IMG/VR virus record: IMGVR_UViG_3300049734_000160
Source: an uncultured virus (IMG/VR IMGVR_UViG_3300049734_000160)
Lineage: Duplodnaviria > Heunggongvirae > Uroviricota > Caudoviricetes
Length of the DNA: 20,000 nt
Reading direction: 5' to 3' (one strand)
The translations under genes were made by a program, and so were the position numbers. The notes under the pieces are model-generated. The model was not told the DNA's origin. It did not search any database and worked only from the letters and a program-made list of their open reading frames with translations. Positions 1,753 through 18,587 of the stretch are shown piece by piece (positions within the stretch are counted from its first letter, which is position 1; each line of letters opens with the position of its first letter).

Positions 1753-4700
1753 ATGGACCAGGCACAGAACAACAAACCCAAATCCGCGCAAATGACCTTG
1801 CGGGAGTTTATTGACGCCTACGGCGAAAAGCTGGGTGTTCCCCGCCAACTCCGCGAATCAATCTTCGAACAAGAGTCCAACTGGAACCATTACTGGCCTA
1901 ATGGTTCGGTAAAGGTCTCACCGAAAGGCGCGCGTGGCGTGGGCCAACTAATGCCGGACACGGCCCGGCGGCTGGGCGTCGCGGATATTGACGATCCGAT
2001 TCAAAACGCCGAAGGCTCGCTGCGGCTCCAGAAACAGCTTTATGAGAAATACCTGAAAGCGCAGGGTGACCCGAACGAAGCGGCGCTGCTGGCGGCGGCA
2101 GCCTATAACGCCGGCGAGGGCGCGGTGGATAAGTTCAGGGGCGTGCCGCGCTATCGGGAGACTCAGAATTACGCGACCCGACTGGCCCAACAGTTAAAGG
2201 CGAATCCGATTCAGGGTCTGCCGACCCGAGCCGTCGCGCCGCAACAGAAACCCATTGCGCCAGTTACTCCGCCCACGCCAACCCGGCCCGCTCCCGCGCC
2301 GTTTGCCCCTCCGCCCCTGCCGTCGAATGAGCCCGTCGAACTCGGTGAAGCGCCGCCGGTTCCTACCCGGCCGGCGACGCTCGCCGAATTCCAGGAGCAA
2401 GAGCCGCCGCCCTACATGGGACCGGCCTTGACGTCGCCGCCACCCCTCGGGGCGCCGGTCTTGCCCGATCCGGCGACGCTGCCCATTACACAGCAAGCGA
2501 TGGCGGCGACACCAATGTGGGTGCCGAAGGAATTCTCGCCGCGGCCACCAGTCGGGTTACCAACCCGGCGCCCGCAACGAACGCGCGCGCCTGGTACGCT
2601 CAATGTGGCAGTGCGAAACGCGCTCCGCAATCCGGAACAACTGGGCCGGGATCTCGAAGCGCACTTCGGCCCGGATGCTCTCTCCGTGATACGCAACCTG
2701 AGCCCGCAGCAGCGACGGCAGATGGTCTATATGGCCAATCGGGCCGCGGCCCAGGATGCGCGCAAGAAAGCGGAGCACTACAAGCAAACCGGACAATGGC
2801 TCGAAATACCCCGGCCACCAATTGAAGAGAATCGCAAGCGAGTCGGAGCGCCACCTTTGGGCACTACGAGCATTGCCGACCTTCGTATGCGTGACGACAC
2901 GCGCGCGGTACTGGCCGACCTGAAACGCCAGGATGATGCGCTGCTGACCGCGCCCGGCTCCATGCCGGGCCGCACGGTACCCTCGATTGAAGAATTCATG
3001 CCGGCCCCGGAGAAGCCGGTGACCTTCGAAGAAGATCGCGCCAAGCGAGTCGAAGCCACGCGACCGATCATAGGCCGGGGCGAATTCCTGCAGCGCGACG
3101 AGCCCGCGGCAGCGCGACAAGCAAAGCTCTTGAATGAAGCGCGCGATCGCGCAGCGCGAGAAGTAGCCGCCGAAGTAGCCGCCGGGCATCAGCCTACTTA
3201 TCAGAAGTTGATGAGCAATCGCGCCCAGGGCTGGGGCGAGTTCCTCGAAGGTAAGGTGGAAGAGAAAGCCAGCGGGTATGTGGCGAACTTCCGCGAACGT
3301 GAAGATCGACTGACCGCGGTGGAGCAAGGCCTGGCCGGGGAGGTCCCTTTGAAAGCGCTCAGCAAAGAGGAAGCGCGCGATCGGGCCGCCAAAGAGGTAG
3401 CCGCGGAGGTAGCGGGAGGCCATCAGCCTACTTACGAAAAATTGATGAGCACTCGTGCTCAGGGTTGGGGCGATTACCTGGAACAGAAGGTAGCGGAGAG
3501 AACCGGTCAATACGTTAGAGAGGCGCGCGCGGAGCAAAGCCAGGTCCCCCGGCTGGGTCTAATGGATAAGCTGCGCGAACTTAGTGAGAAGCCCAGCCAG
3601 GTTGTGCCGTTTTTAAGAAGCGCCTCCAACATAGTCGACCTGCTTGAACTGGGCCTGTCCGCTGAACGGGTCTCCAAGGGGGAGGGCACTGAAGAGGACG
3701 AGTTGAAGATTCGCGAGTATCAGGTGGCGGGTCAACAGGACCAGACGATGGGATACAAGATCGCCAATATCGTCTCGGCGCTGCCCGGCTTTGCCCTTGA
3801 ATTAGGGGCGACCAGTGGGGCCTTCACCTTTGGCCGCGAGGCTGCGGTTCGAGGCCTGGAAAAACTCATCACCAAAAAAGGCCTGGGAATGCTGGAACAG
3901 AAGCTGACCGGGAAGCTACTCAGCAAGAGCATTCAGAACATCGCGGGAGCGGCCGCGCAAACCATCCCTGCCGGCGCGGCCAGTATCCCCGAAGGAGTTC
4001 TATACCGCCAGCGCGAGGGAAAAGATTTTGCTACGGCCTTAGCCGAAACCCTGGGCGACCAGTTCATTGAAGTTGCCTCTGAGCGTACCGGGGGCATCTT
4101 TTCTCATATCCCCGTACCCAAACGGCTGGCGGCTATCCGTGACGCAATCACCGCCAGGTGGATCGCTAAATCACCAGGAAGAACCGCGGCCCAACTACAA
4201 AAGCTGGTTGAGAAAACCGGCTGGCATGGCCCATTAGGGGAAGTGTTCGAAGAGCGCGTGGGAGACATCGCGCGCTACACCGCGGGGCTGCAGGATTATC
4301 CAATTGCAGGCGCTGAGGGCGGTTGGCGCGGAGTCGCTGAGCAGCTTCTGACCGAAGGGCTCGCCTTCAGCGTTCCTTCAGCCGGCGCCGCTGCTGCTAC
4401 TCGCCTGGAACGCAAGGCCCCGCAAGTAGCAAAGGCTGTTCAGCGCGGCGCTTCGCGGTTGCTGGAATTAGCGGGTGGGAAACCCGCAGCGCCGACACCC
4501 GAGGCCCCTGCGGCGGAAGCTCCCGAGCCCAAGACCGAGTTTGCCGGCGGTTGGACCATGCCGGATGAGGCGGCAATCCAAGACGTCGTTAAGTTCAGCG
4601 AGCATGAGAATGTCGCGGCGCGGCAAGAGATTGATTTCACGGAACACTTCGGTGAGTACGGGTTAGAGCGCGCCGAAGTGGCGCGGCAGTATTTACCGCA

Positions 4701-7700
4701 GCTTCGTCAACGCTTCGAAAGGCTGCAGAAAATAAAGCAGGTGCTGAGCGAGGGAGAACTGAGCGAAGCGGACCGCGAGAAACTCACCGGCGCCTACAAC
4801 GATTTCGTGCAGGACTATCAGGCCGCCTACAACGAATTCCGCGAGGGCTTTGACCATCAAGCCTCCGAACGACTGCGCGCCCTGGTGGAGCGTGATGAAT
4901 TCGAGGACGTTGACCGAAGTGGCGCGGAGACACTGGAGTTTCAAGCGAAGGGCGCCAACAACGGCGCCACCGTTGACGTGCTGAAAGTTCCCGAGGGCTG
5001 GATGAGTCGGGCCAGTATCCAGCATGACATCGGCGGCTTCGGTGACGCTGGTCATAGCCGGACAAGCACGGTCTTTACGAGTCGCGAAGCAGCAATCAAG
5101 AATGCCGCGCAAAAGGTCCTCGATTATGCCCAGCGCGAACTTGAAAACCCGCCGCCCAACCTCACGCAACGAGATCGCGAAATGCTACCGCGCGCGATCA
5201 AGTGGGCCAAGAGCCACGGCGCCGAAGGTGAAATCAAGCCAGCAACGATTGACGAGATCGAGCAAACCATTCCGGAGCCGGAAGAGGCGGAAGCCAAAGA
5301 ACCGTGGGAAATGACCCGCGAAGAGTTTCGCCGTCACGTCATTGCTACCGAAGGACCCGGAGGTCAACCGCGTGACATTAGGGAATCAGAGGCCCAGGCA
5401 CGCATTCATCGTGATTACGTGGAGACTGCGATTCGTGAAGGCAAAACTGTGCCTCCCGAAGTGCTCGCGGAGTATCCCGACTTAGCACCTAAGCCCGAAA
5501 AGGAAGAAGCGGACAAAGAAGAAGAGCCGCCACCACCGCCGACCGCGGCAAAGCGAGTGCGCTTCCGCACGCCGAAAGGCGACATCGAGGGTACGGTCAT
5601 TAAGGAGTTCACGACTAAAGAGGGCGTGCCTACTTATCAGGTGCAGGTCGAAGGCCGCGATAAGCCTTACACCGTCGCGCAGAAGAACACTACGGTCCTC
5701 GGTGGTCCAACCGAAGCAGCGCCACCGGAGGCGAAGCCGCCGAAAGTTACGCCGCCGCCAAAACCAAAACCGCCGCAGGGAGAAATGGGGCCAGGTGAGC
5801 GCCGGGCCTACAAAGGCTACCTCATTACGGCGGGAAGAACCCGCGGCGAATACCATGTAAGTAAAGACAATACGCACATCACAACGCAACCCACGTTAGC
5901 CGGGGCCAAGGCGGCGATCGACAGTCTTGTACCAGCGGCCCCGCCGCCACCTAAGCCGCCTGAGACCAGGCCGCCGGCGCCACCGCCCGAAGCGAAACCG
6001 CCGAGTGCGCCGCCGCCGCCGGCAGGAACGAAGCCGCCGCCAAAGCTCTCGCCGGAAACGCTGGAGAGGATTCGAAAGGCGAAAGAGAAGCTGCAACAAA
6101 AAGGTGGACCAGCGCCAACAGGCGGCGCTATGGGAATGCCCGAAGCTCCCGGCGAAGGCGAAGGCGGGTTCGACGAAGAGGACGTGCTGGACGTCGCGAT
6201 GGTGGGCCACGAGCTATTTCAAAATGGCATTCGTGACCAGGCCGAGTGGGGCCAGATGCTACGCGACTTGATTGACCCGGCAATTGAGCCCTACCTCGCG
6301 GACATTTGGGAAACCGCGGTACTTCATCACTTCAATGAAGGCGGTGACACGAGCGACCTGCCGGAAGAGTGGAATCCGCAGGAAGCTGCGCCACCGCAGG
6401 CGCCCGAAGAAAAAGAGCCGGAAGAGGAAGAGGCGGAAGAGCCGGAAACGCCCGAGCATGAGGACCTGGTACCCGGGACTACCAAACTGCGAAACCGGAT
6501 TTATGACTTCCTGCACAACGAACAGGGACCATTGGGTTATCGCCAACTCGACGCGATGGCTGATGAGGCGTTCGGCGGTTCGCGCGCTGAGGGTCGCTAT
6601 GAACCGCGCGATATGTATGACGCGCTGGAGGCGGCGCTGGCTAAGCACATCGGCGCAATGGATCTCAGCAACGTCGACCCTCGCGAAGCGCTGGCGCAGA
6701 TGCGTCGGCTGGTCCAACGTCTACCAACTCAGACCACGCGCACCGCGGAACAGATCGGCCTGCAACAATTCTCGACGCCGCCGACCATTGGCTACATCGC
6801 CGCCGTTGCGCTCCAGGCCCGACCGCAAGACGTAGGTGTAGAGCCTTCGGCTGGGACCGGCATCCTCGCCGCTCTGATGAGGGCGGTGGGTACCGGCCAG
6901 GTGCATGTAAACGAAATCTCCCCGCGCCGCTCAGGGCTCTTGCACGGGCAAGGTTATGACAGTCAGCACCGAGTTGACGCGCAGCACCTGAACGCGCTCT
7001 TGCCGCAGACAATCAGACCGACCATCGTACTGATGAATCCGCCTTTCTCGACGCAGATGGGCATTGACAAGACGAGCACTAAAAACGGCTTCGACCATAT
7101 CGAGCAAGCGCTGGCGCGACTCGAGCCGGGCGGTCGGCTGGTAGCCGTCCTCGGGCAATCAGCCCGCTTCGACCGATCGACCATGCACGACTATTGGGAT
7201 CGGTTGATGAAGAAGTATAATGTTCGCGCTAACATCGGCATTCCCGGTGACGAGTACCGCAAGTTCGGCACTACGTTCGGTACGCAGTTAATTGTTATTG
7301 ACAAGGTCGGTCCCACGCCCGGCGCAACATTCGCCGAGCGCATGAATAACGTGGTCCAAGTGGACCCGGCCGATTTGGAAGGGGTCCTAGATGCCGTCCA
7401 GCAACTCCCGCTTCGCGAACAAACAGCGCCGCCTTTGGGAGGCGGTCGTGGACCAGGTGAGTCTCCATCCGGCGGAGGACCTGGGGGCCAAAGTGAAGCT
7501 GGTGGAGAACGGCCTCCTGCAGGGGGAGGACCTCCCGGCGGCACTGGCACTACTGAACCCGGACTGGAGCCTGGAGAGACTCCGCCGACTGGTCCCGAAG
7601 AGGTTGCTGGCGAAGGTGGCGAGGCTGGAGGAACTGAACCCGGAGGAACTGAACCGGCTGGCCCAGGCGGCGCTGCACCTGGTGGGCTTGGCGGACCCGG

Positions 7701-10700
7701 CGAACCAACTGCGCCTACGGCCGAAGAACTCGGGGTCGAATACCAAACCGAAGCCAGCAAGCGAGAAGCCGAATCCGATCTCTTTGTCGACTACAAACCT
7801 GCCAAGCTAACGGGCGGCCAACCGCACCCGGGCCGCATTGTTGAATCCGCCTCACTCGCCGCCGTCGATCCACCGGACATAACTTACGTTCCCGATCTCG
7901 ATCCGGAAATCATCAGCAAGGGCATTATTTCCGGGCTGCAACTGGAACGGATTACCTACGCCGGCCAGCGCCACAATCAGCGCCTGCCGAACGGGCAGCG
8001 GTCTGCCTATTACGTGGGTGACGGCACCGGCGTGGGAAAAACCCGCATTCTCGCGGGCATTTCGCTCGACAACTGGAACCAGCTAACGAAAGCTGGAAAG
8101 CCCCGCCGCATTGCCTGGTTCACAGTCAACGACGGTCTGGTCGGAAGCGTTGAAGATGCCATGAAGGCGCTTCTGCAGCTTCCTCAGAAAGCCGACCTCT
8201 CGGAGCATTTCCCTTTCCACTTGCTGGGTGACTATGACCTCGGCGACGACCTCGGTGAACTCGCTGGTGACGGGATGATGTTTGTCACCTACAACACTTT
8301 CATCCAGGAAGGCAGCAAGGTTGGCGAGTCGCGCTACAAAGACGTGCTGGATTGGCTCGGCGAGGACGGAGTCATAATTCTCGACGAAGCGCACAAAGCG
8401 AAAAACGCCGAGGCCGCCCAGGGCGCAGGGTCGCAGACGGGCGAAAAGGTAGTGCGGATACAGGAAGAGGGGAGTCCGGATCTCAAGGTCGTTTACGCCT
8501 CAGCCACGGGCGCCACCGAAATACAAAACATGGCCTACATGCAACGGCTCGGCTTGTGGGGGCAGGGTTTGAGTTTTCCGGATTTCGAGGCCTTCAAAGG
8601 AGCCATTAGAGGCGACGACCTGGGAGCCATGGAAATGATTACCCGGGATATGAAGGCCCTCGGTATGTATGGCGCCGCGCAACTGTCATACAAGGGCGTC
8701 ACCTATCGCAGCCTCAAACATCAGCTAGACGAAGATCAGGAGTACGTCTACAACGTGGCGGCCCGCGCCTGGCAGCAAGTGATTGACGCTTTTGAAACTG
8801 CGCTCAATGACCAGCGAGCGCCCGGGCAGCGCCGGGGACGCATCCGCTCGCAGTTCTACTCAACCGAACAGCGTTTCTTTCGCCTGCTCCTTACCGCAAT
8901 GAAAACGCCGACGCTTCTGGCGGACATCGAAAAAGTTCTGGCCGATCCGGTCCAAGACAGGTTTGACCCTGAAAGCGGCAAGGTTGTCAAAGGCCATGGC
9001 GGAGTTGAGTACACCGAAGTAGCAGATTCGAATTCCAGTCTGTTGTTACCGCCACGGCAGGCGAGCGGTGACCCGGAAGAAGTGCGCGCCCGCATGAATA
9101 TGCAGCGCCAGGTGCTGGCGGCGGGCGGTAAGCAGCCTGAACTCACCGTACCGAACATCGGCAAAACGAGACGGATGCCGGCCCAGGTCGTGATTAGCTT
9201 CCTCTACACCGGTGAATCACAAGCGGACCGCGAGGTAACGCAGGCCAAAGCGCGCGGGATCAGTTTGGAGGAACTCGACTTTTCGCCGAAGAGAATGCTG
9301 ATCAGTCTCGTCGATCAATACTTCCCGACTGAGCGCTATCGCGATGTGCCCATTCCTGGCACCAATAGAACCCGTCGCGAGGTTGTTGTTGACGAGGACG
9401 GAAACCCGGTCCACGACCCTGAACTCGTGGCGCGCAAGCAGGCAATGATTGCGGAACTGGACGACACGTTGAAGCTGCCGGAAAACCCGATGGACCAGAT
9501 AGTCAACTATTTTGGACCAGAGAACGTGGCAGAAATTACGGGCCGGTCCAAACGCCTGATTCGCGACCCGGTCACCGGAAAGGAAGAATACGTTTTGCGC
9601 ACCGGCAGCGAACGCGAAGGTCGCGGCAGGGTTTCCAAGAAACGTGCCAACCTGCACGAGCGGGAGGATTTTCAGAACGGCGATAAGCGAATCGCGATGA
9701 TTAGCAAGGCCGCGCAGGTGGGCATTGATCTGCATGCTGACAGTCTCAAGCCTTCGGCCCACCACCGGCGCGTTCATTACATTTTTGAGAGTGCCTGGTC
9801 CGCTGACGACCAGCTACAAAATAACGGCCGGACGCATCGCACTAACCAGAATTCCGAACCGGACTACGTGCTCGTTGAGAGTAACGTCGGTGGGGAGGGG
9901 CGCTTTTTTGCCAGTGTTGCCCGGCGCATGGCGAACGTGGGGGCCTTGTCACAGGGCGAGCGCAAGGCCACCGGCAGCACCTTCGATGATTACGATTTCG
10001 AAAACCAATACGGGCAGACCGCCGCTCGCACCATCCTGCAACACGTTCAGAACCGCCGGGCTCCGCCTGAGTTTATCGACGCGCCCGAGGATTGGGACGC
10101 GATGGACGTGCTGCGCAAGATGGGGCTCACTGACAATGATCCGGACGACGTAAGCCAGCCGCTCAGAGTCAAGCCGGGCGAGATAACCAGCATCGGCGTC
10201 ACCCGGTTTTTGAATCGTGTCTTGGCTCTTGAATTACACGATCAGAATCCCATGTTTCGCTGGTTTATCGGCGAAATGGAAAGGATCATCGAGGCCGCCA
10301 AGAGCAGTGGCACCTTCGATGCCGGTATCAGCGATATCAAAGGTTTGTCTGTTCGCAAGGCCCAACAAGACGTTGTCCACCGCGATCAAGTCACGGGCGC
10401 CGCCTCGCACTACGTCAAGCTAGAAGTCGATGAGCCTACCGTGCCGGTTTCCGTTGACGACGTAAAAGGAACGCAGCAACTGGCCGGGGGCTTTCGGGGC
10501 CGCACCGGCCTCAGCAACACGCTTTGGCGGCAAAAGGTTTCCGGCAACATCATCTTCGTGCAAGAGGCGAGCGCGCGCACGGATCCAGCTACCGGAGCTA
10601 CTCACTATTTCTTTTTCCAGACCAGGCCCAGCGGACGGCTTGACAGTCTCATTAGCGAGCAGGACCTGCGCGAGAAGTATGAACAGGTCCAATGGGCCGA

Positions 10701-13700
10701 CAAAGTTGGCGAACCCTTAAAGACAAAACCCGAGAAACCGTTGCGTCGCATGGTGCCGGCGCCCGCGCGACCAGGCATGCCGGAAGTGAAGCCGGCCGAT
10801 ATTCGGCCGACGGTGCAAACCTGGTGGAACCAGCAGTACGAGCGGGACCCGGGCTTTGTCACTAGAGAGAAACACCTGATTACCAGTCCAGTCGTGCCGC
10901 TCTGGACCCGGCTCACGGTTCGCAATGCCCGCGGGGACGCCGTTCGCCTGCACGCCTCTCGCGCCGTCACCGACGACAATGAGCGAGTGGTCGGCATTGA
11001 TATTCCGTCGCGCGCTATCCGGGAAGTATTGCGCAGGCTCGGCGCCGGGGCGGAGTCAGCCCGCTCGCCCGAAGATGTGTTCAATGCGGTCTACGGTAAC
11101 GGCGAGGACGTTGAGCTTATGGGCGGCATGAAGCTAAAGCGCACCGTGCTTCGCGGAAACCGGGCCATTCAAATACACGGCGTCATTCCTACCGATCGCA
11201 GGATCCTCGAGGACATGGGAGTGATAGTTGAGCGAGGTCTGCAGACTCGCTACTTCGTGCCCGCCGACCCCACTAGAGGCATTGAAGTGCTCGGCAAGAT
11301 GCTTGGACGTTGGCCCGTCTTTGACCCGCGCGCCGCGACGACCGAAGGCGCCGAACTCGAAGGCGGTGATGAAGGCGAAGGCGGCGCGGCCGGGATGCCG
11401 GGTCAATCCGCGCTCGAAGAGAAAAAGGCCGATGTGGCCGAATGGGAACGCCGGCAAGTCGCGGCCAATAAGCGCGTGGAAGCAGGCAAGTATGAATACG
11501 CTGAGCCGCAGGACGAAGAGGACGGGTTAAGCGCGGCGTCGATTGACGACGAGCTAGGCCTGCAATACCAGGAACTGGATGAAATGACCCGCGGTGGTGG
11601 GGCCATGGGAATGCCCGCCGAAGCGGCCGCGGAAACCGAAGCACTGCAGCGCGCATCCGCCGCGCAACTCCACAACTATGGCGAACGCGCCGCTGAGCCG
11701 GACGAGCTTCCGGACCACGAAGCGCAGATACGCGCCCGGTTCGAATGGGTTGAAGAAAGTAACGACGTTAGCGAGCCCGAGATCTACTCGCTGGAACAAG
11801 AGCTTGAGGATCAGGCTGAGTACGAACAACGCGCCATGGCCCGGGTCAACGGCGTTAGCAATTGGGACATTCGCATGGATCCGGAAATTGGTATGGAGAA
11901 CGTCAAGGTCTCCACCGCTGATGTGCGCGACGAGTTTCTAAAGATGTTCGAAGCGATTGGACACTCGACCAGTATTCGTTCCGGTCGCATGGGCCGCTAC
12001 TCGAAAACCGCGCTCGGCATCACCTTGCTGCACAGCCAGGTAATCCGGCTCAAGGAAGCATGGCACATTCCGGTGATGGCCCACGAAGCCGGCCACGCGC
12101 TGCAGGCGGCTATCTACGGTAGTTCGCTCTCGCCGGCGATTAAGCATCTGCCGTTGCCGGTGCGCCGCGAACTGGTCAAACTCGGAAAGGACCTCTACGG
12201 TTCGACGAAGCCTTACGGCGGCTATATCTCGGAAGGGTTCGCTGAATTCATGCGCTACTACCTCACGACCGAAGAGGCGCCGGCGCGCGCTCCATTAATG
12301 ACGGACTTTCTGGAGAACCAGATTCTGCCGAACAATCCGAAGCTGGCGAAGGCCTTCCCCAAGGTCAAGAAGAAGATCGACGAGTACCGATTCCAGGGCG
12401 AGAAGCAGCGCAGCCTCGCCCAAACGACCAGTGAGAAATCATTGAAACAGCGCTACCGCGAAACCGTGCGTAGCTTGACCAAAGAATTACCGAAAGACTG
12501 GATTGATGAGCTAACCCCGATCTTTCATACCTCGCGCGCGGTGCAGGAGACGGCCGGCGTCACGCTCCAGCCAAAGCAAGATCCGGAAATGCTCGCGAAG
12601 TTCTATCGCGGCACCGGCAATCACGTCGCGCGCCTGATGTTTGAAAAGGGCATGGTGGATGGTGATCTAAACTTCATTGGTCCCTCCTACGACCAGGCCG
12701 TCATTGGGCCATTGCGCAACGTCGGCACGCGCCTCGGCATGAACGCCGAAGAACTGCTGGGTCAATACCTTTGGGCGCTGCGGGCGATCGAGCGCTTATC
12801 GCCCTATGTCCTTGGCGGTGAAGAAACGGGCGGTGCCGGCATGTATACAAAGCTCGTCCGGCAGCGCGGGCGATTAGTGCCGATTCCGAAGGAAGTTAAA
12901 AATCCGGGCAAGAACATAGAACAGGCCCAGTACATGAAGCGCCTGATTGAAGAGGCCGCGCCCGAGGTCCAACTGGCCGCGGCCGGCTGGTACAAGTTCT
13001 ACGACGGGCTGATCAATTACGTGCTGGAAGTGAACCCCGATCTAGAGCCGGCCGTCCGGCGGCAGTTACGCACGGCGGCCTATTACGCGCCCCTGCAACG
13101 CTCGTTTGATGAAATCGAAGCGCAGGTGATGGGTAAGCAGCAAGCGTTTGCGGGGCAACCGCTGGTCCGGGAAATGAAAGGTTCGGGCCGCGGCATCATT
13201 GCTCCCACGCGGCAGATATTTCTGAACTTCGAACGGGCGATTAGCAACGCGCACAAGCACCGGCTCTGGACGGCCATTCTCGACCTGGAACAAATTCCCG
13301 GCATTGGCAAGATCGTGGAAAGAGTTCCGGTCGGCAAGATGCCGGTCAATGTCCCGCTGGACCGGATTCGCAAGCAACTTGAAGATGCTGGCATTGACAC
13401 CAGTGGCGCCAATGGCGATGAGATTCTCACCTACTTCCTGCCAATGCAGCGGCCCAATGGCCCACAGCCGATCATGCCGCTGGTGCGCAACGGGAAAGTC
13501 ACGTGGTACGAGATCTCGCCGGAACTTTATAACTCGCTTGCGGGCCTCGATGTGTTCCGCCCGGATAAGACGTTCTATGTTTACGCGCAATACTTCGCCC
13601 GCGCTTTCCGCCTCGGCACTACCGGCCTGCGACCCGGCTTCGGCCTGATTAGCAATCCGGCAAAAGACATCCCGGCCTGGCTAGGCCAATCGCAGATCAA

Positions 13701-15336
13701 GTCAAAGAACTCCCTTAACCGGTTTCAGTTCTACACCCGCTCGCTGGGCGCCTCGCTGGGCTGGCTGATTACGAATCAGGCGAAGTGGCGCACCCCGGGA
13801 TTTATGAAGCAGTCGACCGAGCTTTACAAGCTCTTCAAGCGGCTGCCTATCGAACTGGCCCAACCGCTGGGCTATGACATTCAGACTACGCGCAAGTACG
13901 GCAAACGTCTCTGGCGCCCGCGCGGTAAAGAGATTCTGCGCCACCCGCTGAAACGGGTCGTCACGTCCACGCCCATTGATTTTCTGCGCACCGTGTTTGG
14001 TTGGCCCGAGGCGATACCGCGCATCGCGGAAATGGTTGGGCTAATGAAAGACGTGGGCTATAAGCCCGGCGATCCGATGGATATGAACACGGCCATTATG
14101 CTTGCCGTTGCCGCCCGCGAGGCCACGGTTGATTTCTCGGCGGCAGGCGCTAAAGCGAAGGTCTGGAATCAAGTGGTCCCGTTTTTCAATCCCGCCATTC
14201 AGGGAACACGGTCGTTTGCTCGCGCCTGGAAACGGAGTCCGTACAACGCCTTTATGACCGGCATGACCCTGGCGACCGCGTCGCTGATGCTCTGGTGGCT
14301 CTATAAGGACGAGGACTGGTTTCGGGATCTCGACGAGGATGAGCGCAACCGTTTCTGGAATGTCAAGGTAGGGGACCAGGTGCTGCAAATTCCCAAGTCG
14401 CAGGAATGGGGCACCATCTTCGGCACGCTGCCGGTTGAGCTAATAGACAGCGCTTACCAGGAGGATCCGGACCGAGCCATCAGCGCCATGAAGTTTCTCA
14501 TGGACAGCATGCGACCGAACGTCCTGCCGGTGCCGGTAAGCGCCGCCCTCGAACAAAGCTCTAACTGGAATGAATTCTTTGGCCGCCCGATCGTGCCGGC
14601 GGCTTACGAGGAACTGGCGGCCCCTGAGCAGTGGAACCAGTACACTTCGGAGACCGCGAAATATCTCGCCAGGCATTTGCCCAACTGGCGCATTCCCTAC
14701 ATGAACGTGCCGATCAATTCCCCGATGCGGATTGACGCGGCGATCCGTGAATTTGGCGGCGGCGTCGGCGCTGACATCGTCAACGCGCCGCGCCTCATTT
14801 CTAAAACCGGCCAGGCTCTGAAAGGCGCGGTCAGTGGTGAAGGAGCCGGCGAAGATTACACACCCTCCGATTTACCCGTCGTGGGCCGGTTGTTCCGGCG
14901 TGGCGGCGTGGTCGGCACGGGTCGTTCGCCGCAAGTCACTAAGTTTTACGAAAAGCTCACCGAGGCCCGCCAGTTGTCCGTGTCGAAAGAGCGCGTGGAA
15001 ACAGAGGAACAACGCACTGCGCGCCTGAATTTGGAAGAGGCCAACGTCGCCATTAAGGCTTTGCGCGATGGCGCCCGGGACGAGAAGAACGCGAAAAAGC
15101 GCGACGACATGTATCGCCTGCTTAACGATTTCGCGCGGCGCGCTCTCGCCGGTGAGCAGGTCTACACGCCCAAGAAAAGGACCGAGCGCGAAGAAACCCA
15201 ACATGAACGGTCCCGCGAAAAACGCGAGCAGAGAGCGATCGAGCGTTGGAGCGGAGAAAGGAAAGGCGAAGAGGGTGGCAGCCGTGGGCCAACGCGGCGC
15301 CGGCCGAGCTTACCCACTTCACCATTAGCACCATGA
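1753..15336 (+). CDS. Giant polyvalent virion protein (4527 aa): SLT lytic transglycosylase + DNA methyltransferase + Strawberry-notch SF2 helicase + zincin metallopeptidase + LPD38-like region (DarB-like anti-restriction/ejection protein)
   Basis: Uninterrupted 13.6-kb ORF with recognisable motifs for each domain (see domain features); 3-nt gap to the upstream gene and ATGA overlap with the downstream gene. Confidence 0.92.
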   Translation: MDQAQNNKPKSAQMTLREFIDAYGEKLGVPRQLRESIFEQESNWNHYWPNGSVKVSPKGARGVGQLMPDTARRLGVADIDDPIQNAEGSLRLQKQLYEKYLKAQGDPNEAALLAAAAYNAGEGAVDKFRGVPRYRETQNYATRLAQQLKANPIQGLPTRAVAPQQKPIAPVTPPTPTRPAPAPFAPPPLPSNEPVELGEAPPVPTRPATLAEFQEQEPPPYMGPALTSPPPLGAPVLPDPATLPITQQAMAATPMWVPKEFSPRPPVGLPTRRPQRTRAPGTLNVAVRNALRNPEQLGRDLEAHFGPDALSVIRNLSPQQRRQMVYMANRAAAQDARKKAEHYKQTGQWLEIPRPPIEENRKRVGAPPLGTTSIADLRMRDDTRAVLADLKRQDDALLTAPGSMPGRTVPSIEEFMPAPEKPVTFEEDRAKRVEATRPIIGRGEFLQRDEPAAARQAKLLNEARDRAAREVAAEVAAGHQPTYQKLMSNRAQGWGEFLEGKVEEKASGYVANFREREDRLTAVEQGLAGEVPLKALSKEEARDRAAKEVAAEVAGGHQPTYEKLMSTRAQGWGDYLEQKVAERTGQYVREARAEQSQVPRLGLMDKLRELSEKPSQVVPFLRSASNIVDLLELGLSAERVSKGEGTEEDELKIREYQVAGQQDQTMGYKIANIVSALPGFALELGATSGAFTFGREAAVRGLEKLITKKGLGMLEQKLTGKLLSKSIQNIAGAAAQTIPAGAASIPEGVLYRQREGKDFATALAETLGDQFIEVASERTGGIFSHIPVPKRLAAIRDAITARWIAKSPGRTAAQLQKLVEKTGWHGPLGEVFEERVGDIARYTAGLQDYPIAGAEGGWRGVAEQLLTEGLAFSVPSAGAAAATRLERKAPQVAKAVQRGASRLLELAGGKPAAPTPEAPAAEAPEPKTEFAGGWTMPDEAAIQDVVKFSEHENVAARQEIDFTEHFGEYGLERAEVARQYLPQLRQRFERLQKIKQVLSEGELSEADREKLTGAYNDFVQDYQAAYNEFREGFDHQASERLRALVERDEFEDVDRSGAETLEFQAKGANNGATVDVLKVPEGWMSRASIQHDIGGFGDAGHSRTSTVFTSREAAIKNAAQKVLDYAQRELENPPPNLTQRDREMLPRAIKWAKSHGAEGEIKPATIDEIEQTIPEPEEAEAKEPWEMTREEFRRHVIATEGPGGQPRDIRESEAQARIHRDYVETAIREGKTVPPEVLAEYPDLAPKPEKEEADKEEEPPPPPTAAKRVRFRTPKGDIEGTVIKEFTTKEGVPTYQVQVEGRDKPYTVAQKNTTVLGGPTEAAPPEAKPPKVTPPPKPKPPQGEMGPGERRAYKGYLITAGRTRGEYHVSKDNTHITTQPTLAGAKAAIDSLVPAAPPPPKPPETRPPAPPPEAKPPSAPPPPAGTKPPPKLSPETLERIRKAKEKLQQKGGPAPTGGAMGMPEAPGEGEGGFDEEDVLDVAMVGHELFQNGIRDQAEWGQMLRDLIDPAIEPYLADIWETAVLHHFNEGGDTSDLPEEWNPQEAAPPQAPEEKEPEEEEAEEPETPEHEDLVPGTTKLRNRIYDFLHNEQGPLGYRQLDAMADEAFGGSRAEGRYEPRDMYDALEAALAKHIGAMDLSNVDPREALAQMRRLVQRLPTQTTRTAEQIGLQQFSTPPTIGYIAAVALQARPQDVGVEPSAGTGILAALMRAVGTGQVHVNEISPRRSGLLHGQGYDSQHRVDAQHLNALLPQTIRPTIVLMNPPFSTQMGIDKTSTKNGFDHIEQALARLEPGGRLVAVLGQSARFDRSTMHDYWDRLMKKYNVRANIGIPGDEYRKFGTTFGTQLIVIDKVGPTPGATFAERMNNVVQVDPADLEGVLDAVQQLPLREQTAPPLGGGRGPGESPSGGGPGGQSEAGGERPPAGGGPPGGTGTTEPGLEPGETPPTGPEEVAGEGGEAGGTEPGGTEPAGPGGAAPGGLGGPGEPTAPTAEELGVEYQTEASKREAESDLFVDYKPAKLTGGQPHPGRIVESASLAAVDPPDITYVPDLDPEIISKGIISGLQLERITYAGQRHNQRLPNGQRSAYYVGDGTGVGKTRILAGISLDNWNQLTKAGKPRRIAWFTVNDGLVGSVEDAMKALLQLPQKADLSEHFPFHLLGDYDLGDDLGELAGDGMMFVTYNTFIQEGSKVGESRYKDVLDWLGEDGVIILDEAHKAKNAEAAQGAGSQTGEKVVRIQEEGSPDLKVVYASATGATEIQNMAYMQRLGLWGQGLSFPDFEAFKGAIRGDDLGAMEMITRDMKALGMYGAAQLSYKGVTYRSLKHQLDEDQEYVYNVAARAWQQVIDAFETALNDQRAPGQRRGRIRSQFYSTEQRFFRLLLTAMKTPTLLADIEKVLADPVQDRFDPESGKVVKGHGGVEYTEVADSNSSLLLPPRQASGDPEEVRARMNMQRQVLAAGGKQPELTVPNIGKTRRMPAQVVISFLYTGESQADREVTQAKARGISLEELDFSPKRMLISLVDQYFPTERYRDVPIPGTNRTRREVVVDEDGNPVHDPELVARKQAMIAELDDTLKLPENPMDQIVNYFGPENVAEITGRSKRLIRDPVTGKEEYVLRTGSEREGRGRVSKKRANLHEREDFQNGDKRIAMISKAAQVGIDLHADSLKPSAHHRRVHYIFESAWSADDQLQNNGRTHRTNQNSEPDYVLVESNVGGEGRFFASVARRMANVGALSQGERKATGSTFDDYDFENQYGQTAARTILQHVQNRRAPPEFIDAPEDWDAMDVLRKMGLTDNDPDDVSQPLRVKPGEITSIGVTRFLNRVLALELHDQNPMFRWFIGEMERIIEAAKSSGTFDAGISDIKGLSVRKAQQDVVHRDQVTGAASHYVKLEVDEPTVPVSVDDVKGTQQLAGGFRGRTGLSNTLWRQKVSGNIIFVQEASARTDPATGATHYFFFQTRPSGRLDSLISEQDLREKYEQVQWADKVGEPLKTKPEKPLRRMVPAPARPGMPEVKPADIRPTVQTWWNQQYERDPGFVTREKHLITSPVVPLWTRLTVRNARGDAVRLHASRAVTDDNERVVGIDIPSRAIREVLRRLGAGAESARSPEDVFNAVYGNGEDVELMGGMKLKRTVLRGNRAIQIHGVIPTDRRILEDMGVIVERGLQTRYFVPADPTRGIEVLGKMLGRWPVFDPRAATTEGAELEGGDEGEGGAAGMPGQSALEEKKADVAEWERRQVAANKRVEAGKYEYAEPQDEEDGLSAASIDDELGLQYQELDEMTRGGGAMGMPAEAAAETEALQRASAAQLHNYGERAAEPDELPDHEAQIRARFEWVEESNDVSEPEIYSLEQELEDQAEYEQRAMARVNGVSNWDIRMDPEIGMENVKVSTADVRDEFLKMFEAIGHSTSIRSGRMGRYSKTALGITLLHSQVIRLKEAWHIPVMAHEAGHALQAAIYGSSLSPAIKHLPLPVRRELVKLGKDLYGSTKPYGGYISEGFAEFMRYYLTTEEAPARAPLMTDFLENQILPNNPKLAKAFPKVKKKIDEYRFQGEKQRSLAQTTSEKSLKQRYRETVRSLTKELPKDWIDELTPIFHTSRAVQETAGVTLQPKQDPEMLAKFYRGTGNHVARLMFEKGMVDGDLNFIGPSYDQAVIGPLRNVGTRLGMNAEELLGQYLWALRAIERLSPYVLGGEETGGAGMYTKLVRQRGRLVPIPKEVKNPGKNIEQAQYMKRLIEEAAPEVQLAAAGWYKFYDGLINYVLEVNPDLEPAVRRQLRTAAYYAPLQRSFDEIEAQVMGKQQAFAGQPLVREMKGSGRGIIAPTRQIFLNFERAISNAHKHRLWTAILDLEQIPGIGKIVERVPVGKMPVNVPLDRIRKQLEDAGIDTSGANGDEILTYFLPMQRPNGPQPIMPLVRNGKVTWYEISPELYNSLAGLDVFRPDKTFYVYAQYFARAFRLGTTGLRPGFGLISNPAKDIPAWLGQSQIKSKNSLNRFQFYTRSLGASLGWLITNQAKWRTPGFMKQSTELYKLFKRLPIELAQPLGYDIQTTRKYGKRLWRPRGKEILRHPLKRVVTSTPIDFLRTVFGWPEAIPRIAEMVGLMKDVGYKPGDPMDMNTAIMLAVAAREATVDFSAAGAKAKVWNQVVPFFNPAIQGTRSFARAWKRSPYNAFMTGMTLATASLMLWWLYKDEDWFRDLDEDERNRFWNVKVGDQVLQIPKSQEWGTIFGTLPVELIDSAYQEDPDRAISAMKFLMDSMRPNVLPVPVSAALEQSSNWNEFFGRPIVPAAYEELAAPEQWNQYTSETAKYLARHLPNWRIPYMNVPINSPMRIDAAIREFGGGVGADIVNAPRLISKTGQALKGAVSGEGAGEDYTPSDLPVVGRLFRRGGVVGTGRSPQVTKFYEKLTEARQLSVSKERVETEEQRTARLNLEEANVAIKALRDGARDEKNAKKRDDMYRLLNDFARRALAGEQVYTPKKRTEREETQHERSREKREQRAIERWSGERKGEEGGSRGPTRRRPSLPTSPLAP
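1792..2190 (+). other. Soluble lytic transglycosylase (SLT/GH23-like) domain of the giant protein
   Basis: Catalytic QES (E at 1873-1875), GARGVGQLMP (1927-1956), AYNAG (2101-2115) and ETQNY (2158-2172): the canonical SLT motif series. Confidence 0.92.
3136..3498 (+). repeat. Internal duplicated 43-aa unit (3136-3264 and 3370-3498; period 234 nt)
   Basis: EARDRAAREVAAEVAAGHQPTYQKLMSNRAQGWGEFLEGKVEE vs EARDRAAKEVAAEVAGGHQPTYEKLMSTRAQGWGDYLEQKVAE, 35/43 identical by hand count. Confidence 0.95.
5700..6060 (+). repeat. Pro/Lys-rich low-complexity linkers (PPEAKPP x2, PPPKP repeats) flanking a small domain at 5800-5928
   Basis: APPEAKPPKVTPPPKPKPP and PPPPKPPETRPPAPPPEAKPPSAPPPPAGTKPPPK read directly from the translation. 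Confidence 0.85.
6487..7410 (+). other. Amino (N6-adenine-type) DNA methyltransferase domain, motif I before motif IV (gamma-like order)
   Basis: QQFSTP (6763-6780), SAM-binding EPSAGTG (6841-6861), NEISPRR, catalytic NPPF (7036-7047), LEPGGRLVAV. The lead-in AFGGSRAEG...YDALEAA...LPTQTTRT resembles plasmid/ICE 'methylase/helicase' proteins. Confidence 0.9.
7391..7810 (+). CDS. Candidate overprinted gene (+1 frame, 139 aa, Leu/Glu-rich helical protein) nested in the MTase-helicase linker
   Basis: ATG 7391 preceded by GGAAGGGG, stop TAA 7808-7810. In 7441-7680 the giant-ORF frame has about 28/80 G/C-ending codons, versus 14-15/20 in sampled lines elsewhere, while the +1 frame has about 70/80 and reads as an amphipathic helical protein. 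Confidence 0.6.
   Translation: MPSSNSRFANKQRRLWEAVVDQVSLHPAEDLGAKVKLVENGLLQGEDLPAALALLNPDWSLERLRRLVPKRLLAKVARLEELNPEELNRLAQAALHLVGLADPANQLRLRPKNSGSNTKPKPASEKPNPISLSTTNLPS
7627..7656 (+). repeat. 15-nt tandem duplication ggaggaactgaacc(c/g)
   Basis: ggaggaactgaaccc ggaggaactgaaccg; GGTEP x2 in the main frame, EELNP/EELNR in the +1 frame. The 15-nt unit preserves both frames. Confidence 0.9.
7780..11330 (+). other. Strawberry-notch-family SF2 helicase/ATPase (AAA_34 + Helicase_C_4-like) with C-terminal extension
   Basis: HPGRIVESASLAAVDPP, LQLERITYAGQRH, Walker A GDGTGVGKT (8017-8043), DEAH (8383-8394), SAT (8500-8508), NMAYMQRLGLWG, VAEITGR, GIDLHAD, motif VI QNNGRTHR (9817-9840), RMANVGALSQGER. 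Confidence 0.9.
11890..12400 (+). other. Zincin-like metallopeptidase domain (MPTase of polyvalent proteins)
   Basis: HEAGH (12082-12096) after a beta-strand (VIRLK), plus a downstream helix EGFAE (12232-12246) supplying a likely third ligand. Confidence 0.8.
14080..14960 (+). other. LPD38-like C-terminal region
   Basis: AREATVDFS...G...VPFFNPAIQG, hydrophobic helix ATASLMLWWLY, DEDERNRFW...QIPKSQEWG, NWNEFFGRPIVP and SPMRID: a pattern I recognise from C-termini of large phage polyvalent proteins. Confidence 0.7.
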
Positions 15337-15947
15337 GATCAGATAAACAAAAAGTAAGACCGATCAGAGTGAAGTCACTGCCGAAAGCCGAACAGGTCGC
15401 GCTGCGTGTGCGCACGCTCGCCATGTTGAAATTCAACCAGGGAAACATTCGTAAGACCTCGCGCGAGACCGGCGTGAACGTCAATACCATTCGCACCTGG
15501 TTGCAGGTCAACGACGAAGCGACGCGGCAGATATTTCTCGAACGTAAAGCGAAGCTCGACGCCGAGGCCGCCGCGCGCAACGAGAAGATTATGCAGAGTG
15601 CGGAAGAGGCGGAGGCCGAACAGAACAAACTGATTGCCGACGCCTCGCGCACGGTCCACACGCTCTCCATGGACAAGATGATCGAGCTTGCTAATGGCAT
15701 CGTCGTCTCGCTCTTGCATGATTTGGGCACGTCGCAAAAGTTCTATGACCGCGTGATGGGTTTCGGCGTGGTGTTCGACAAGATTCAGATCATGCAGGGC
15801 AACCCGACCAACATCCGCGAGACGCATCGCGGCATGTCCCGCACGGAGCGCGCTGAGCGAGCAGAGCAGTTGCTGCGCACGGCCGAAGAGCGGCGCCGCG
15901 ACATGAAGGTGATCGCCAAAGAAGTTAAGCATGTCGAACAAGGATGA
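15333..15947 (+). CDS. Terminase small subunit (putative), 204 aa
   Basis: Start reassigned to ATG 15333, which forms an ATGA overlap with the giant-ORF stop. N-terminal HTH GNIRKTSRETGVNVNTIRTWL, central coiled coil, C-terminal 'DKIQIMQGNPT'; overlaps terL by 17 nt. Confidence 0.75.
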   Translation: MRSDKQKVRPIRVKSLPKAEQVALRVRTLAMLKFNQGNIRKTSRETGVNVNTIRTWLQVNDEATRQIFLERKAKLDAEAAARNEKIMQSAEEAEAEQNKLIADASRTVHTLSMDKMIELANGIVVSLLHDLGTSQKFYDRVMGFGVVFDKIQIMQGNPTNIRETHRGMSRTERAERAEQLLRTAEERRRDMKVIAKEVKHVEQG

Positions 15948-18369
15948 TCTACAAAGCAGTCTCGATTACTTGACGCCGGCAGAGCGCGCGGAACTGGATA
16001 TGCTGCTCTCGGTGGAGCAGCCGACGTTTGCCACTTACGTGAGCGTCATTAAGCAGATTCAACTGGACCCCTGGCAGGTAGATTTATGCAACCGGTTGGA
16101 GCAGGCCTTCTGGTTGGCCCAGGCGATGAAGTTCACCTTCTCTGACGCCGGCGATTTTGTCGAAGCGCCCAGCGGCATGCTGATTCCCAAAGAGACGTTC
16201 AAGGCGCGTTACGGGCTAGGCACGCGCGTAGCGATTCACGCGGCGCCGCAATTCGGGAAGTCAATCATCATTTCGCAATGCTACCCGGCGTGGATTCTTG
16301 GTTATGACCCGACGCACCGCTTCCGCTTAGCCACCTATAACGTATTTCACTCGGCGCGCTTCTCGGTGGTCATTAAGCACATTATGGGGTCACTCGAACA
16401 TCGCGCCTTCTTCCCCGCTCGCGAATGTATCGTTCCTAATAAAACCAAAGCCGTCGAATGGTCCACCATCGGCCGGATTGAGGTCGCCGACGGCCAGGCG
16501 TCGTTCACGGCGCTGGGTCTGCAGTCGGGCTTCACCGGCACCGGCGCCGACACGCTGCTCATCGACGACCCGTACAAGTCGATGGAAGAAGCGCTCTCGG
16601 AAATCATTCGCGACAAGACCTGGCGCTTTCACACTGACACGGCGAGCCCGCGTCTCAATGACCAGTCAAATGAATTCATCATGTTCCACCGCTACCACCA
16701 GGACGACATGGGCGGCCGGGCGCTGGCGACGGGTGAATTCGATTTGTTGCGTTACGCGGCCGAAGCTGATGGTCCATACGTCGACGAGCAGACCGGCATT
16801 GAGTACCCCGATCCGCTGGGGCGTGAAGAGGGCGAATACCTGAGCCCGCGTTTTTCACCGGCTTACTACCAGCGGCAAAAAGCCAACGACCAGGTCTGGC
16901 AGTCGATGTTCCAGGGGCGGCCGGTCAGCAAGTCGGGCAATATGTTTGACGTGGCCCGCATACAGGTAGTGGAGGCGCTACCGGAATTTGTGCACGAGGT
17001 ACGAGCCTGGGACAACGCGGCCACCGAAGGCGGCGGCGCTTACACTGCCGGCGTGCGCATGGGCATTACCGGTACCGGTCGCCTGGTGATTTGCAATGTG
17101 AAGCGGGAACAGGTTGGAAGCGCCGAGCGCACTGTGTTGCAACACGCAACGGCCGCCGAAGATGGTTTGCTGGTGGAGATCCACGGACCGCAGGATCCGG
17201 GCTCTGCTGGTAAAGACGTCGCCTTTCAGTTTGAACAGGAACTGGCTGCGAAGCATTACAACGTGACCGTCGAAGTCGTCAGCGGTTCGAAGGAAATGCG
17301 CGCCTATCCGTTCTCGCAGGCAGTCAACAGCGGGTTGGTTGACGCCTACGTTGACGGCAACTGGGATTTCAAAGCGTTCAAAGACGAGCTACACAACTTT
17401 CCGCTCTCAACCTACAAGGACCAGGTTGACGCCGCCTCGGATGCGTACTCGCATTTGTATCGGCTCTTCCACCGCGGGCTCGTGATTAAGAGCTTCCGGC
17501 CGCACATCAATCTCATTCCCTGGTCGCGCTTCACGAAGAAGTTTGGTCTACAGGTCCCGGCGCACTGGGAAGTATCGGGCGGGTTGCGCATTGAGGCTGA
17601 CAAGTCAAAACCTTCGGGTTGGACCATCGTTGCGCGCGCGGCAGAGAACGCCGGCATAGGCGAAGTGGTTTTCGTGGTTGCCTCGCGACGCTACTACAGC
17701 CAGGAAGTGATGTCGATTCTCGGCGAGTTCATGGCCGCCATGGAACACTACTGCGCGGGCGGCATGAAGCAGGCGGGCGCCTGCTGGGTGAAGAAGGGAA
17801 ACACCGAGGTCCTGCAACTGGCTTCGGAAAAGTACGGGCTCACGCTCTATGAATTCGAAGGCGACGAACTCGAGGGCGTGCCGGAAACAAACTGGTACTT
17901 TCAGTTTGAGCCGCAACAGCTTTCCCCGTTCTATCAACGCATCGGCGCCTCGCACTGCTATCTGCTCACGGCCGACGGGCAACTTGATGTGCCTCTCGAT
18001 GATGAAGGGCTCTTGGCAACGCGCCAGGAATTGACCACCTGGGCCTATAACGATAACGGCCTGCCGCAACCCTATGGCGGCATCACCCTCGACTGTCTGC
18101 GTATGACGCTTTACGCCTTCGCGCTCACCGCCACCGCCATGACCGACGAAGAGCGACGCGTTAGCAAACTCCCCGACGAACTGAAACCATCAACTGTGCT
18201 CGCGCGCCTGGGTCAGCCTGATTTCGTGGAAACCTACATGGCCCAGCAGCATGCGCTAACACAGATCAAGCTCAAGGAAGAAAAAGAGCGCAACGAACTG
18301 CGCAAAGACATGGGCAAACTTTTGCACATGCCTCGGCGGCGCAGTTTTCAAAAGCGCAGGGCTGGATAA
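15931..18369 (+). CDS. terL: Terminase large subunit, 812 aa, with a ~300-aa C-terminal extension
   Basis: PWQ motif, Walker A APQFGKS (16243-16263), Walker B LLIDD (16555-16569), HRYHQDD, MFQGRP; nuclease motifs RAWD (D at 17011), QDPGSAGK, GSKEMRA and FP...KDQVDA (17416-17433). Confidence 0.93.
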   Translation: MSNKDDLQSSLDYLTPAERAELDMLLSVEQPTFATYVSVIKQIQLDPWQVDLCNRLEQAFWLAQAMKFTFSDAGDFVEAPSGMLIPKETFKARYGLGTRVAIHAAPQFGKSIIISQCYPAWILGYDPTHRFRLATYNVFHSARFSVVIKHIMGSLEHRAFFPARECIVPNKTKAVEWSTIGRIEVADGQASFTALGLQSGFTGTGADTLLIDDPYKSMEEALSEIIRDKTWRFHTDTASPRLNDQSNEFIMFHRYHQDDMGGRALATGEFDLLRYAAEADGPYVDEQTGIEYPDPLGREEGEYLSPRFSPAYYQRQKANDQVWQSMFQGRPVSKSGNMFDVARIQVVEALPEFVHEVRAWDNAATEGGGAYTAGVRMGITGTGRLVICNVKREQVGSAERTVLQHATAAEDGLLVEIHGPQDPGSAGKDVAFQFEQELAAKHYNVTVEVVSGSKEMRAYPFSQAVNSGLVDAYVDGNWDFKAFKDELHNFPLSTYKDQVDAASDAYSHLYRLFHRGLVIKSFRPHINLIPWSRFTKKFGLQVPAHWEVSGGLRIEADKSKPSGWTIVARAAENAGIGEVVFVVASRRYYSQEVMSILGEFMAAMEHYCAGGMKQAGACWVKKGNTEVLQLASEKYGLTLYEFEGDELEGVPETNWYFQFEPQQLSPFYQRIGASHCYLLTADGQLDVPLDDEGLLATRQELTTWAYNDNGLPQPYGGITLDCLRMTLYAFALTATAMTDEERRVSKLPDELKPSTVLARLGQPDFVETYMAQQHALTQIKLKEEKERNELRKDMGKLLHMPRRRSFQKRRAG

Positions 18370-18583: not shown

Positions 18584-18587
18584 CCAA

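Follow-up and report, generated by a model that had tools for sequence, protein, structure and literature searches.

A probable gene nested out of frame in the methylase-helicase linker of a phage polyvalent protein gene

The 20,000-nucleotide stretch of DNA analysed here (the window) comes from an uncultured Caudoviricetes virus (IMG/VR record IMGVR_UViG_3300049734_000160) and carries a giant open reading frame (ORF), 1753..15336, whose 4527-residue polyvalent product joins a probable methyltransferase (MTase) core to a Strawberry-notch helicase through a low-complexity Gly/Pro/Glu/Thr linker. Wholly within this host gene, on the same strand and in the +1 frame, lies a second ORF of 139 codons (7391..7810) which, judged from its sequence and that of its relatives, very probably represents a genuine protein-coding gene. 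The linker DNA appears to be dual-coding, with the +1 frame under purifying selection and the main frame merely kept open and flexible, and the linker itself appears to be mostly the shadow of a Leu/Glu/Ala-rich +1 protein. Comparisons with other loci indicate that the nested arrangement has passed down together with the host gene in over 100 relatives among phages, plasmids and integrated elements.

Codon usage over the linker

An initial annotation of the window had proposed a hidden gene here, on the grounds that the G/C content of main-frame third codon positions (GC3) is depressed over the linker. The ORF, its ATG, the translation then quoted and the 139 codons were all confirmed in the sequence, and so was the low GC3 with its anomalous codons. 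In sliding windows of 80 codons the GC3 of the host gene reaches its minimum of 0.36 at 7453-7692, compared with a gene mean of 0.68, and the first and second positions there have G/C contents of 0.88 and 0.80. Over the 98 linker codons GC3 is 0.378 as against 0.69 expected from synonymous resampling from the rest of the gene (z = -7.0), a value that was reached in none of 20000 resamplings. The linker is also the top GC3 outlier of the gene in 60-codon windows (z -5.3). The skew is carried by ACT for eight of nine Thr, GCT for five of nine Ala, CCT for 8 of 21 Pro and GGA for 14 of 36 Gly.

Codon usage was also scored as a log-ratio per codon. At 7391-7729 the +1 frame scores 0.299 and the main frame -0.121. 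Windows of the host gene in its own frame score 0.338 +/- 0.095, with a minimum of 0.077 outside the linker, and the +1 frame outside the linker scores at most -0.213. Over the linker, codon usage is that of ordinary coding sequence in the +1 frame and not in the main frame.

The simplest alternative is a compositional by-product, in which a Gly/Pro/Glu linker happens to contain no +1 stops, A/T third positions are used against G/C runs or extreme GC content, and the ORF encodes nothing. The openness of the +1 frame in the window is indeed to be expected from the amino acids alone, as a +1 stop needs T in the second position of a main-frame codon and the linker has none there; 0.6 stops are expected and the probability of finding none is 0.52. 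Two antisense ORFs likewise cross the window's linker (7191..7760, 189 residues, and 7387..7746, 119 residues, both on the minus strand), and open antisense frames over the linker fit a compositional side effect. The view of the initial annotation that the dip in main-frame GC3 is the independent signal is thereby upheld: the real signal is the codon anomaly, not the openness of the frame. As a source of that anomaly, however, composition does poorly, for the remaining low-complexity stretches of the host gene, Gly/Pro-rich ones among them, hold their GC3 at 0.60-0.76.

The next independent GC3 dip of the gene is found at 5338-5517 on the plus strand (0.47 compared with 0.64 expected, z -3.0). 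Other-frame ORFs overlap that area, at 5024..5314 (plus strand) and 5482..5889 (minus strand).

Conservation of the +1 frame and its start site

Related loci, 75 of them viral and 79 from genomes or plasmids, were retrieved by searching with an alignment (A4) of the main-frame domains on either side of the linker. With the window these make 155 sources, 146 of which include both flanks, and they provide 135 non-redundant linkers, 117 of them long (median 143 residues, with 103 of 120-180 residues) and 18 short (30-60 residues). Main-frame GC3 of the long linkers stays within 0.17-0.58 across flank GC3 values of 0.14-0.93. It falls to z <= -3 in 95 of the 117, including all 60 with a flank GC3 of at least 0.6, and in none of the 18 short linkers. 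In linkers of 100-200 residues the mean GC of main-frame position 3 is 0.36 and its slope is shallow, and main-frame position 1, which is position 3 of the +1 frame, tracks genomic GC3 (slope 0.55, r 0.87). In the linkers it is the +1-frame positions that behave as coding positions, and not the main-frame ones. Nor is the third position lower in the linkers of low-GC relatives; it converges on the same value there, much as a codon second position would, and in one locus (L027) it lies above the flank (z = +5.8), which argues against the compositional by-product.

In all 101 loci compared, the main frame is open over at least 75% of the linker; the same holds for the +1 frame in 100, for the +2 frame in one and for antisense frames in 33-42. 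Of 103 loci, 74 have fewer +1 stops than expected from composition. Among the 117 long linkers, 114 contain a +1 ORF of 80 codons or more that begins with ATG (median 118 residues), its ATG lies 2-4 codons past the start of the linker in 94 long-linker loci, and a Shine-Dalgarno (SD)-like motif precedes it in 107 of the 117. Homologous linkers, whose +1 frame and ribosome-binding site the initial annotation had proposed to check, do keep both. Furthermore, the 60 nucleotides around the nested start form less stable structure than controls in 103 of 113 loci (-8.9 compared with -14.2 kcal/mol).

The start site may have left a mark on the main-frame protein. The nested start usually reads TTGGAGGGnATnAGAA-ATG, which in the main frame encodes the conserved motif L-E-G-I-R-N-D/E; the AT of the nested ATG is supplied by AAT in 81 loci and by GAT in 27. 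Among the 38 ATG-bearing loci with a flank GC3 above 0.7, Asn is written AAT in 20 and Asp is written GAT in 14. The window's version of the motif is L-E-G-V-L-D-A (7370-7393), and its SD-like sequence GGAAGGGG is encoded by the conserved residues L-E-G. Its nested ATG is written across the main-frame codons GAT-GCC. The motif L-E-G-(I/V)-R-N-(D/E) may be conserved at least partly since its DNA holds the SD sequence and the nested ATG.

These start-site data bear on a second alternative, already raised in the initial annotation, namely a programmed frameshift: ribosomes on the giant gene would shift to the +1 frame, with no independent initiation, and the product would be an N-terminal protein that lacks the helicase and ends in a helical segment. 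The ORF does share the strand of the host gene and lie in its +1 frame, and a truncated, MTase-only product is biologically plausible. In the window, however, a +1 TAG abuts the nested ATG and closes the +1 frame, so that frameshift entry would need to fall after that ATG. Of 114 loci in the family, 27 have a +1 stop no more than one codon upstream of the ATG and 43 have one within five codons. A frameshift moreover has no need of the conserved ATG, the SD-like motif or the low structure at the start, and on these start-site data we consider this disfavoured alternative highly unlikely.

A sigma-70-like site, TTGGGA-16-TATAAT (10/12 match), is present at 7194-7221 on the plus strand, about 170 nucleotides 5' of the nested ATG, where it overlies the conserved main-frame motif K-Y-N-V. 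A conserved internal promoter was considered and rejected, as TATAAT falls on K-Y-N-V in only 13 of the 86 motif-bearing long-linker loci; on these comparisons the site is probably incidental.

The closest DNA relative of the window is a metagenome contig (L007), about 61% identical, which has the same ATG, a GAAGGAG SD sequence at the same place and a +1 stop just upstream. Its main-frame GC3 over the linker, 0.30, is the lowest in a frame of 5697 codons. The two sequences share 112-113 codons, over which identity is 61% between the +1 proteins and 48% between the main-frame linkers. By main-frame codon position, the differences number 47, 28 and 29 in the linker as against 73, 45 and 172 in 299 upstream MTase codons (Fisher p = 3e-8). 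Where the residue is identical, the codon is identical as well in 43 of 54 cases (80%) in the linker but in only 82 of 203 (40%) in the MTase (p = 2.4e-7). Main-frame synonymous sites of the linker appear from this to be constrained between the two sequences.

The L007 contig also holds, at 10500-11200, an insert of about 230 residues that separates the nested-gene linker from the helicase. The insert resembles the segment preceding the MTase in the window (…KKQQQAAG…GFDADSVLDAAIIGH…), which suggests a duplicated module.

Selection was then measured over 41 independent pairs, chosen by a helicase-flank identity of 0.60-0.92 with each locus used once. By +1 codon position the differences are 0.33/0.26/0.40, with +1 third positions the commonest place of change. 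Counted by main-frame position, the linker gives 0.36/0.30/0.34 in a main-frame-guided alignment and the helicase flank 0.24/0.16/0.61, and in every one of the 41 pairs third positions make up a smaller share of the differences in the linker than they do in the flank. Identity of the +1 protein exceeds that of the main-frame linker in 30 pairs (0.464 compared with 0.389; Wilcoxon p = 2e-4). The nested protein evolves faster than the enzymes beside it: at 80-90% flank identity nested products are 68% and linkers 46% identical, a comparison based on 376 pairs chosen by +1 identity. Synonymous constraint in the main-frame linker is found both between the window and L007 and across the 41 pairs, and homologous linkers show neither the frequent +1 stops nor the lack of constraint that had been named beforehand as evidence against a gene.

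The compositional by-product is largely refuted by these comparisons. It accounts for neither a +1 protein conserved beyond the main frame, nor a conserved ATG and SD sequence, nor the deficit of +1 stops, nor the confident fold that +1 translations give (below), and on present data it is extremely improbable.

Nested products and the weight of the evidence

A search with residues 1650-2350 of the host protein scored 1428 relatives, and among those listed nearly all have a Gly/Pro/Glu/Arg/Ser-rich spacer of 113-190 residues at the position of the linker. A compensated frameshift of a folded domain was rejected: the +1 product is unmatched in the main frames of the 120 listed homologues (best E = 0.29), which rules that origin out.

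The 139-residue product itself (P0002) was searched with HMMER among 1.8 billion representatives, a search proposed in the initial annotation, and returned P0002 together with four further small proteins of 33-56% identity and a clear shared pattern. Most of the small-protein relatives are located on short contigs, on which the giant frame would be invisible to a gene caller. One of them, P0124, is found on five contigs of up to 19.8 kb and bears the source name 'pyocin large subunit-like protein', a name probably carried over from the giant gene. Among deposited phages there was no close DNA or protein relative of the window, and viral contigs scanned with the window's own peptide patterns, or with alignment A3 of the small nested products, gave no match.

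BLASTP sorts the nested products into sets of 80, 13 and 10, with the window in the set of 10. The products are rich in Leu, Glu and Ala, and the two larger sets are acidic (median isoelectric point, pI, 4.7 and 4.3). A single family for all nested products is unsupported by profile comparison and was rejected, the probability being 0.5% for A3 against A6 and 4.6% for A10 against A6. The groups do follow the host-gene tree. In it, the group of 13 falls inside the group of 80, and the window pairs with L017 (support 98), the two belonging to another clade that has 21 members. Inside that clade, 11 acidobacterial short-linker genes are sister to the window and L017 (support 96). Short-linker relatives lack the GC3 dip, and at 30-60 residues their linkers are too short for the nested gene. 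The position of the acidobacterial genes suggests a secondary, joint loss of the nested gene and the long spacer, and the clade serves as a natural negative control in a case of dual coding that is unusually clean for bacteria or phages.

AlphaFold2, given 68 +1 translations of the large group, predicts a compact six-helix domain with a predicted local distance difference test score (pLDDT) of 83 and a predicted template modelling score (pTM) of 0.72. For the window product (model m9a691d3ff22f, 12 sequences) it predicts helices at residues 5-24, 45-54, 57-67, 70-77 and 84-100, with pLDDT below 50 beyond residue 107. The core of this product is neutral and its tail basic (pI 11.2, net charge +5), giving a pI of 9.9 for the whole. 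The tail is unaligned among relatives and overlaps a main-frame segment, EELGVEYQTEASKREAESDLFVDYKPAKL, which is conserved in them.

Foldseek found no match in the Protein Data Bank (PDB) for either model at E <= 0.001, and VIA-align over 48,161 chains reached a best Z of only 4.1 for the pLDDT-83 model. PDB sequence profiles gave no match for the nested products, nor did the ESM Atlas (best 0.79). The window product belongs to no family in Pfam, PHROGs or NCBIfam. The large-group product had only single-member, chance-level family matches there, and none in PADLOC, which was searched for the large group only.

Several observations weigh against a functional nested gene in the window, or limit how far the family data extend to it, in addition to the open +1 and antisense frames that composition would supply on its own. 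The nested start in the window is not less structured than controls (-17.5 compared with -14.7 kcal/mol), and its GGAAGGGG is a weaker SD sequence than the family consensus GGAGG. The AlphaFold2 model of the window product is mediocre (pLDDT 64, pTM 0.50). The window's product group numbers only 12 sequences, with DNA for seven, and has no detectable homology to the group of 80, so that the family statistics carry over to it by position and host-gene phylogeny; the tree used for this, a FastTree of the flanking domains rooted at its midpoint, falls short of a rigorous test. The surveyed loci were found via two motifs, with at most 80 per collection, and near-duplicates remain among them. Main-frame linker identity is equal or higher in 11 of the 41 pairs, mostly the most divergent and poorly aligned ones. 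Finally, fold, family and PDB searches gave no match bearing on the function of the nested product.

Some of these points would also fit a decaying relic, a nested gene that is functional in relatives and no longer translated in the window phage, its frame still intact. The weaker SD sequence and more structured start region of the window agree with this, as do the unusually basic product, compared with group median pI values of 4.3-5.65, and the longest end branch of its clade (0.82). On the other side stand the intact 139-codon frame, +1 codon usage equal to that of the phage's real genes, and the window-L007 comparison, which shows +1 constraint along the lineages that separate the two. We regard decay as quite unlikely. 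The proposal of the initial annotation that the ORF is a gene for a nested small protein is strongly supported by the conserved ATG and SD sequence, the open +1 frame and the synonymous constraint.

Host gene, possible role and known systems

The host gene is a phage polyvalent protein gene with a probable methylase-helicase dyad, of the architecture set out by Iyer et al. (2017; PMC5512222). That paper describes MTase-SWI2/SNF2 helicase dyads of the DarB type, including a rarer one with a Strawberry-notch-type helicase, and infers that the dyad serves to modify the DNA of the element upon entry. In the window the helicase assignment is firm (AAA_34, E = 5e-87; Helicase_C_4, E = 3.5e-70). The MTase core has a weak Pfam MTS match of 16.8 bits, where the cut-off is 23, as an adenine-MTase-like module, and its M-N-P-P-F-S motif is invariant in relatives (alignments A4 and A7). 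SLT and LPD38 are additional, unrelated effector domains within the same polypeptide. Features of the window and of its relatives are listed in the table.

Table. Features of the host gene, the nested ORF and their relatives; numerical positions refer to the window unless marked otherwise
Feature	Location	Strand	Basis
Giant ORF (host gene), 4527-residue polyvalent protein	1753..15336	+	ORF list
SLT lytic transglycosylase domain of host protein	residues 20-133	+	Pfam
MTase core of host gene	6847..7164 (residues 1699-1804)	+	weak Pfam MTS match
MNPPFS motif of MTase core	from 7033	+	read in sequence
Shine-Dalgarno-like GGAAGGGG, 6 nucleotides upstream of nested ATG	7377-7384	+	
TAG stop in +1 frame, abutting nested ATG upstream	7388..7390	+	
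Nested +1-frame gene (probable), 139 codons + TAA (protein P0002)	7391..7810	+	ORF list, translation
Conserved core of nested product, codons 1-113	7391..7729	+	alignments A2, A3, A5
Main-frame Gly/Pro/Glu/Thr low-complexity linker, 98 codons, MTase to helicase	7429..7722	+	
Basic, unconserved, predicted-disordered tail of nested product	7730..7810	+	
TAA stop of nested ORF	7808-7810	+	
AAA_34, N-terminal part of Strawberry-notch helicase	7822..8754 (residues 2024-2334)	+	Pfam
Helicase_C_4 of Strawberry-notch helicase	residues 2578-2861	+	Pfam
LPD38 domain of host protein	residues 4187-4376	+	Pfam
Terminase large subunit, downstream of host gene	15931..18369		
Nested +1 ORF of L007, 133 codons	L007:10101-10502		contig DNA
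Protein relatives of nested product	P0123-P0127		HMMER
Short-linker relatives	L090, L093, L097, L102, L104, L105, L107, L108, L117, L126		mostly acidobacterial metagenome-assembled genomes
Short-linker relatives, continued	L128, L131, L133, L138, L147, L148, L153, also L140		mostly acidobacterial metagenome-assembled genomes

Expression of the nested gene would proceed by internal initiation on the giant mRNA, at the SD-like sequence and ATG of the table, and the predicted product would consist of a helical core of about 106 residues followed by the basic tail. Polyvalent methylase-helicase proteins are thought to enter the cell alongside the DNA, as a first-line counter-defence of phages and conjugative elements. 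A tentative proposal, drawn by analogy with TraH and MobB (below) and from the obligatory co-inheritance of the two genes, is that the nested product binds the host protein and assists it. Such assistance could lie in folding, in holding the host protein inactive, or in loading it into a capsid or transfer channel, the last being conceivable because polyvalent proteins are believed to accompany the DNA. That the product is instead an independent counter-defence factor seems less likely than a partnership with the host protein, and rather doubtful in itself. Going further, one might speculate, at comparably long odds, that the 'linker' of about 130 residues throughout this branch of polyvalent proteins is the coding shadow of an ancient hidden gene. 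Its product would be indispensable to the giant protein, for instance as a clamp or chaperone by which the methylase-helicase stays inactive or fit for transport until it reaches a new cell with the DNA. If this were true, hundreds of phages, plasmids and integrative elements would have an unrecognised, co-inherited regulatory component in their counter-defence machinery.

The closest parallel is traH in traI of IncP plasmids. In R751 (L163) a 130-codon nested ORF (14103..14495, minus strand) lies in the +1 frame of traI (13798..16041), over a Gly/Arg/Ala/Pro-rich low-complexity stretch of TraI, and is absent from the gene table for the record. The likeness is in the layout, a +1 ORF of about 130 codons wholly inside a large multi-domain DNA-transfer gene, with the same linker-as-shadow pattern. 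TraH is given as a protein of 130 residues (PMC3614916), and as an acidic protein that stabilises the complex of its host protein, by experiment (PMC7314908). The role of TraH is thus experimental in print, whereas the nested product here is known from sequence alone. The host genes also differ, traI encoding a relaxase and not a methylase-helicase, and TraH has a Cys-containing C-terminal half and no Leu-rich helical core. Comparison of A6 and A5 with the R751 nested ORF by hhalign gave no sign of homology (probability 0.14% and 0.24%). A similar likeness holds, by published description, for mobB of RSF1010, a small accessory gene that lies in another frame inside mobA/repB, which encodes a relaxase-primase (PMC2200642), and there too the host gene differs from a methylase-helicase gene.

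The kind of arrangement is already known more widely, and what sets the present case apart is how broadly it occurs, how old it is and how rarely it shows up in protein databases. Lambda Rz1 in Rz, phiX174 B in A and E in D, and comS in srfA are all same-strand, out-of-frame embedded genes with their own start, and the products of Rz and Rz1 act together. Those genes are short, as are Rz1, E and comS, or belong to small genomes, whereas the nested gene here fills an interdomain spacer of a gene of more than 4000 codons and, unlike those cases, is conserved across very diverse mobile elements. The host architecture is shared with PMC5512222; the words overlapping, frameshift, linker and disordered do not occur in that paper, nor is a nested gene described there. 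We found no description of a nested gene in methylase-helicase polyvalent genes in the literature, subscription journals and bioRxiv supplements excepted.

The statement in the initial annotation that standard annotation would miss the gene is borne out. A profile of the 68 nested products of the large group finds only 14 entries among 5.8 billion predicted proteins, to be set against the 1428 scored relatives of the host gene. On a conjugative plasmid of Methylotuvimicrobium alcaliphilum 20Z (NC_016108.1) the nested ORF occupies 105156-105497 on the minus strand. The gene that covers it is annotated only as 'strawberry notch-like NTP hydrolase domain-containing protein' and comes after traI, a coupling protein gene, traF and topoisomerase III, and the RefSeq-derived PLSDB table, incomplete by design, lists only the giant gene over it. 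Gene finders would on this reading systematically lose the nested gene, and the methylase-helicase spacer would be misread as a mere disordered linker. A conserved extra gene would mean that the parts catalogue of polyvalent counter-defence proteins is incomplete. Cultivable carriers exist, among them plasmids of Methylotuvimicrobium, Methylomonas and Methylobacter.

Past the terminase gene of the window, an ORF of 153 residues (18486..18947, plus strand) matches PHROG 355, a nucleoside 2-deoxyribosyltransferase family (E = 3e-37), a hint that this phage carries out nucleotide or DNA-modification chemistry.

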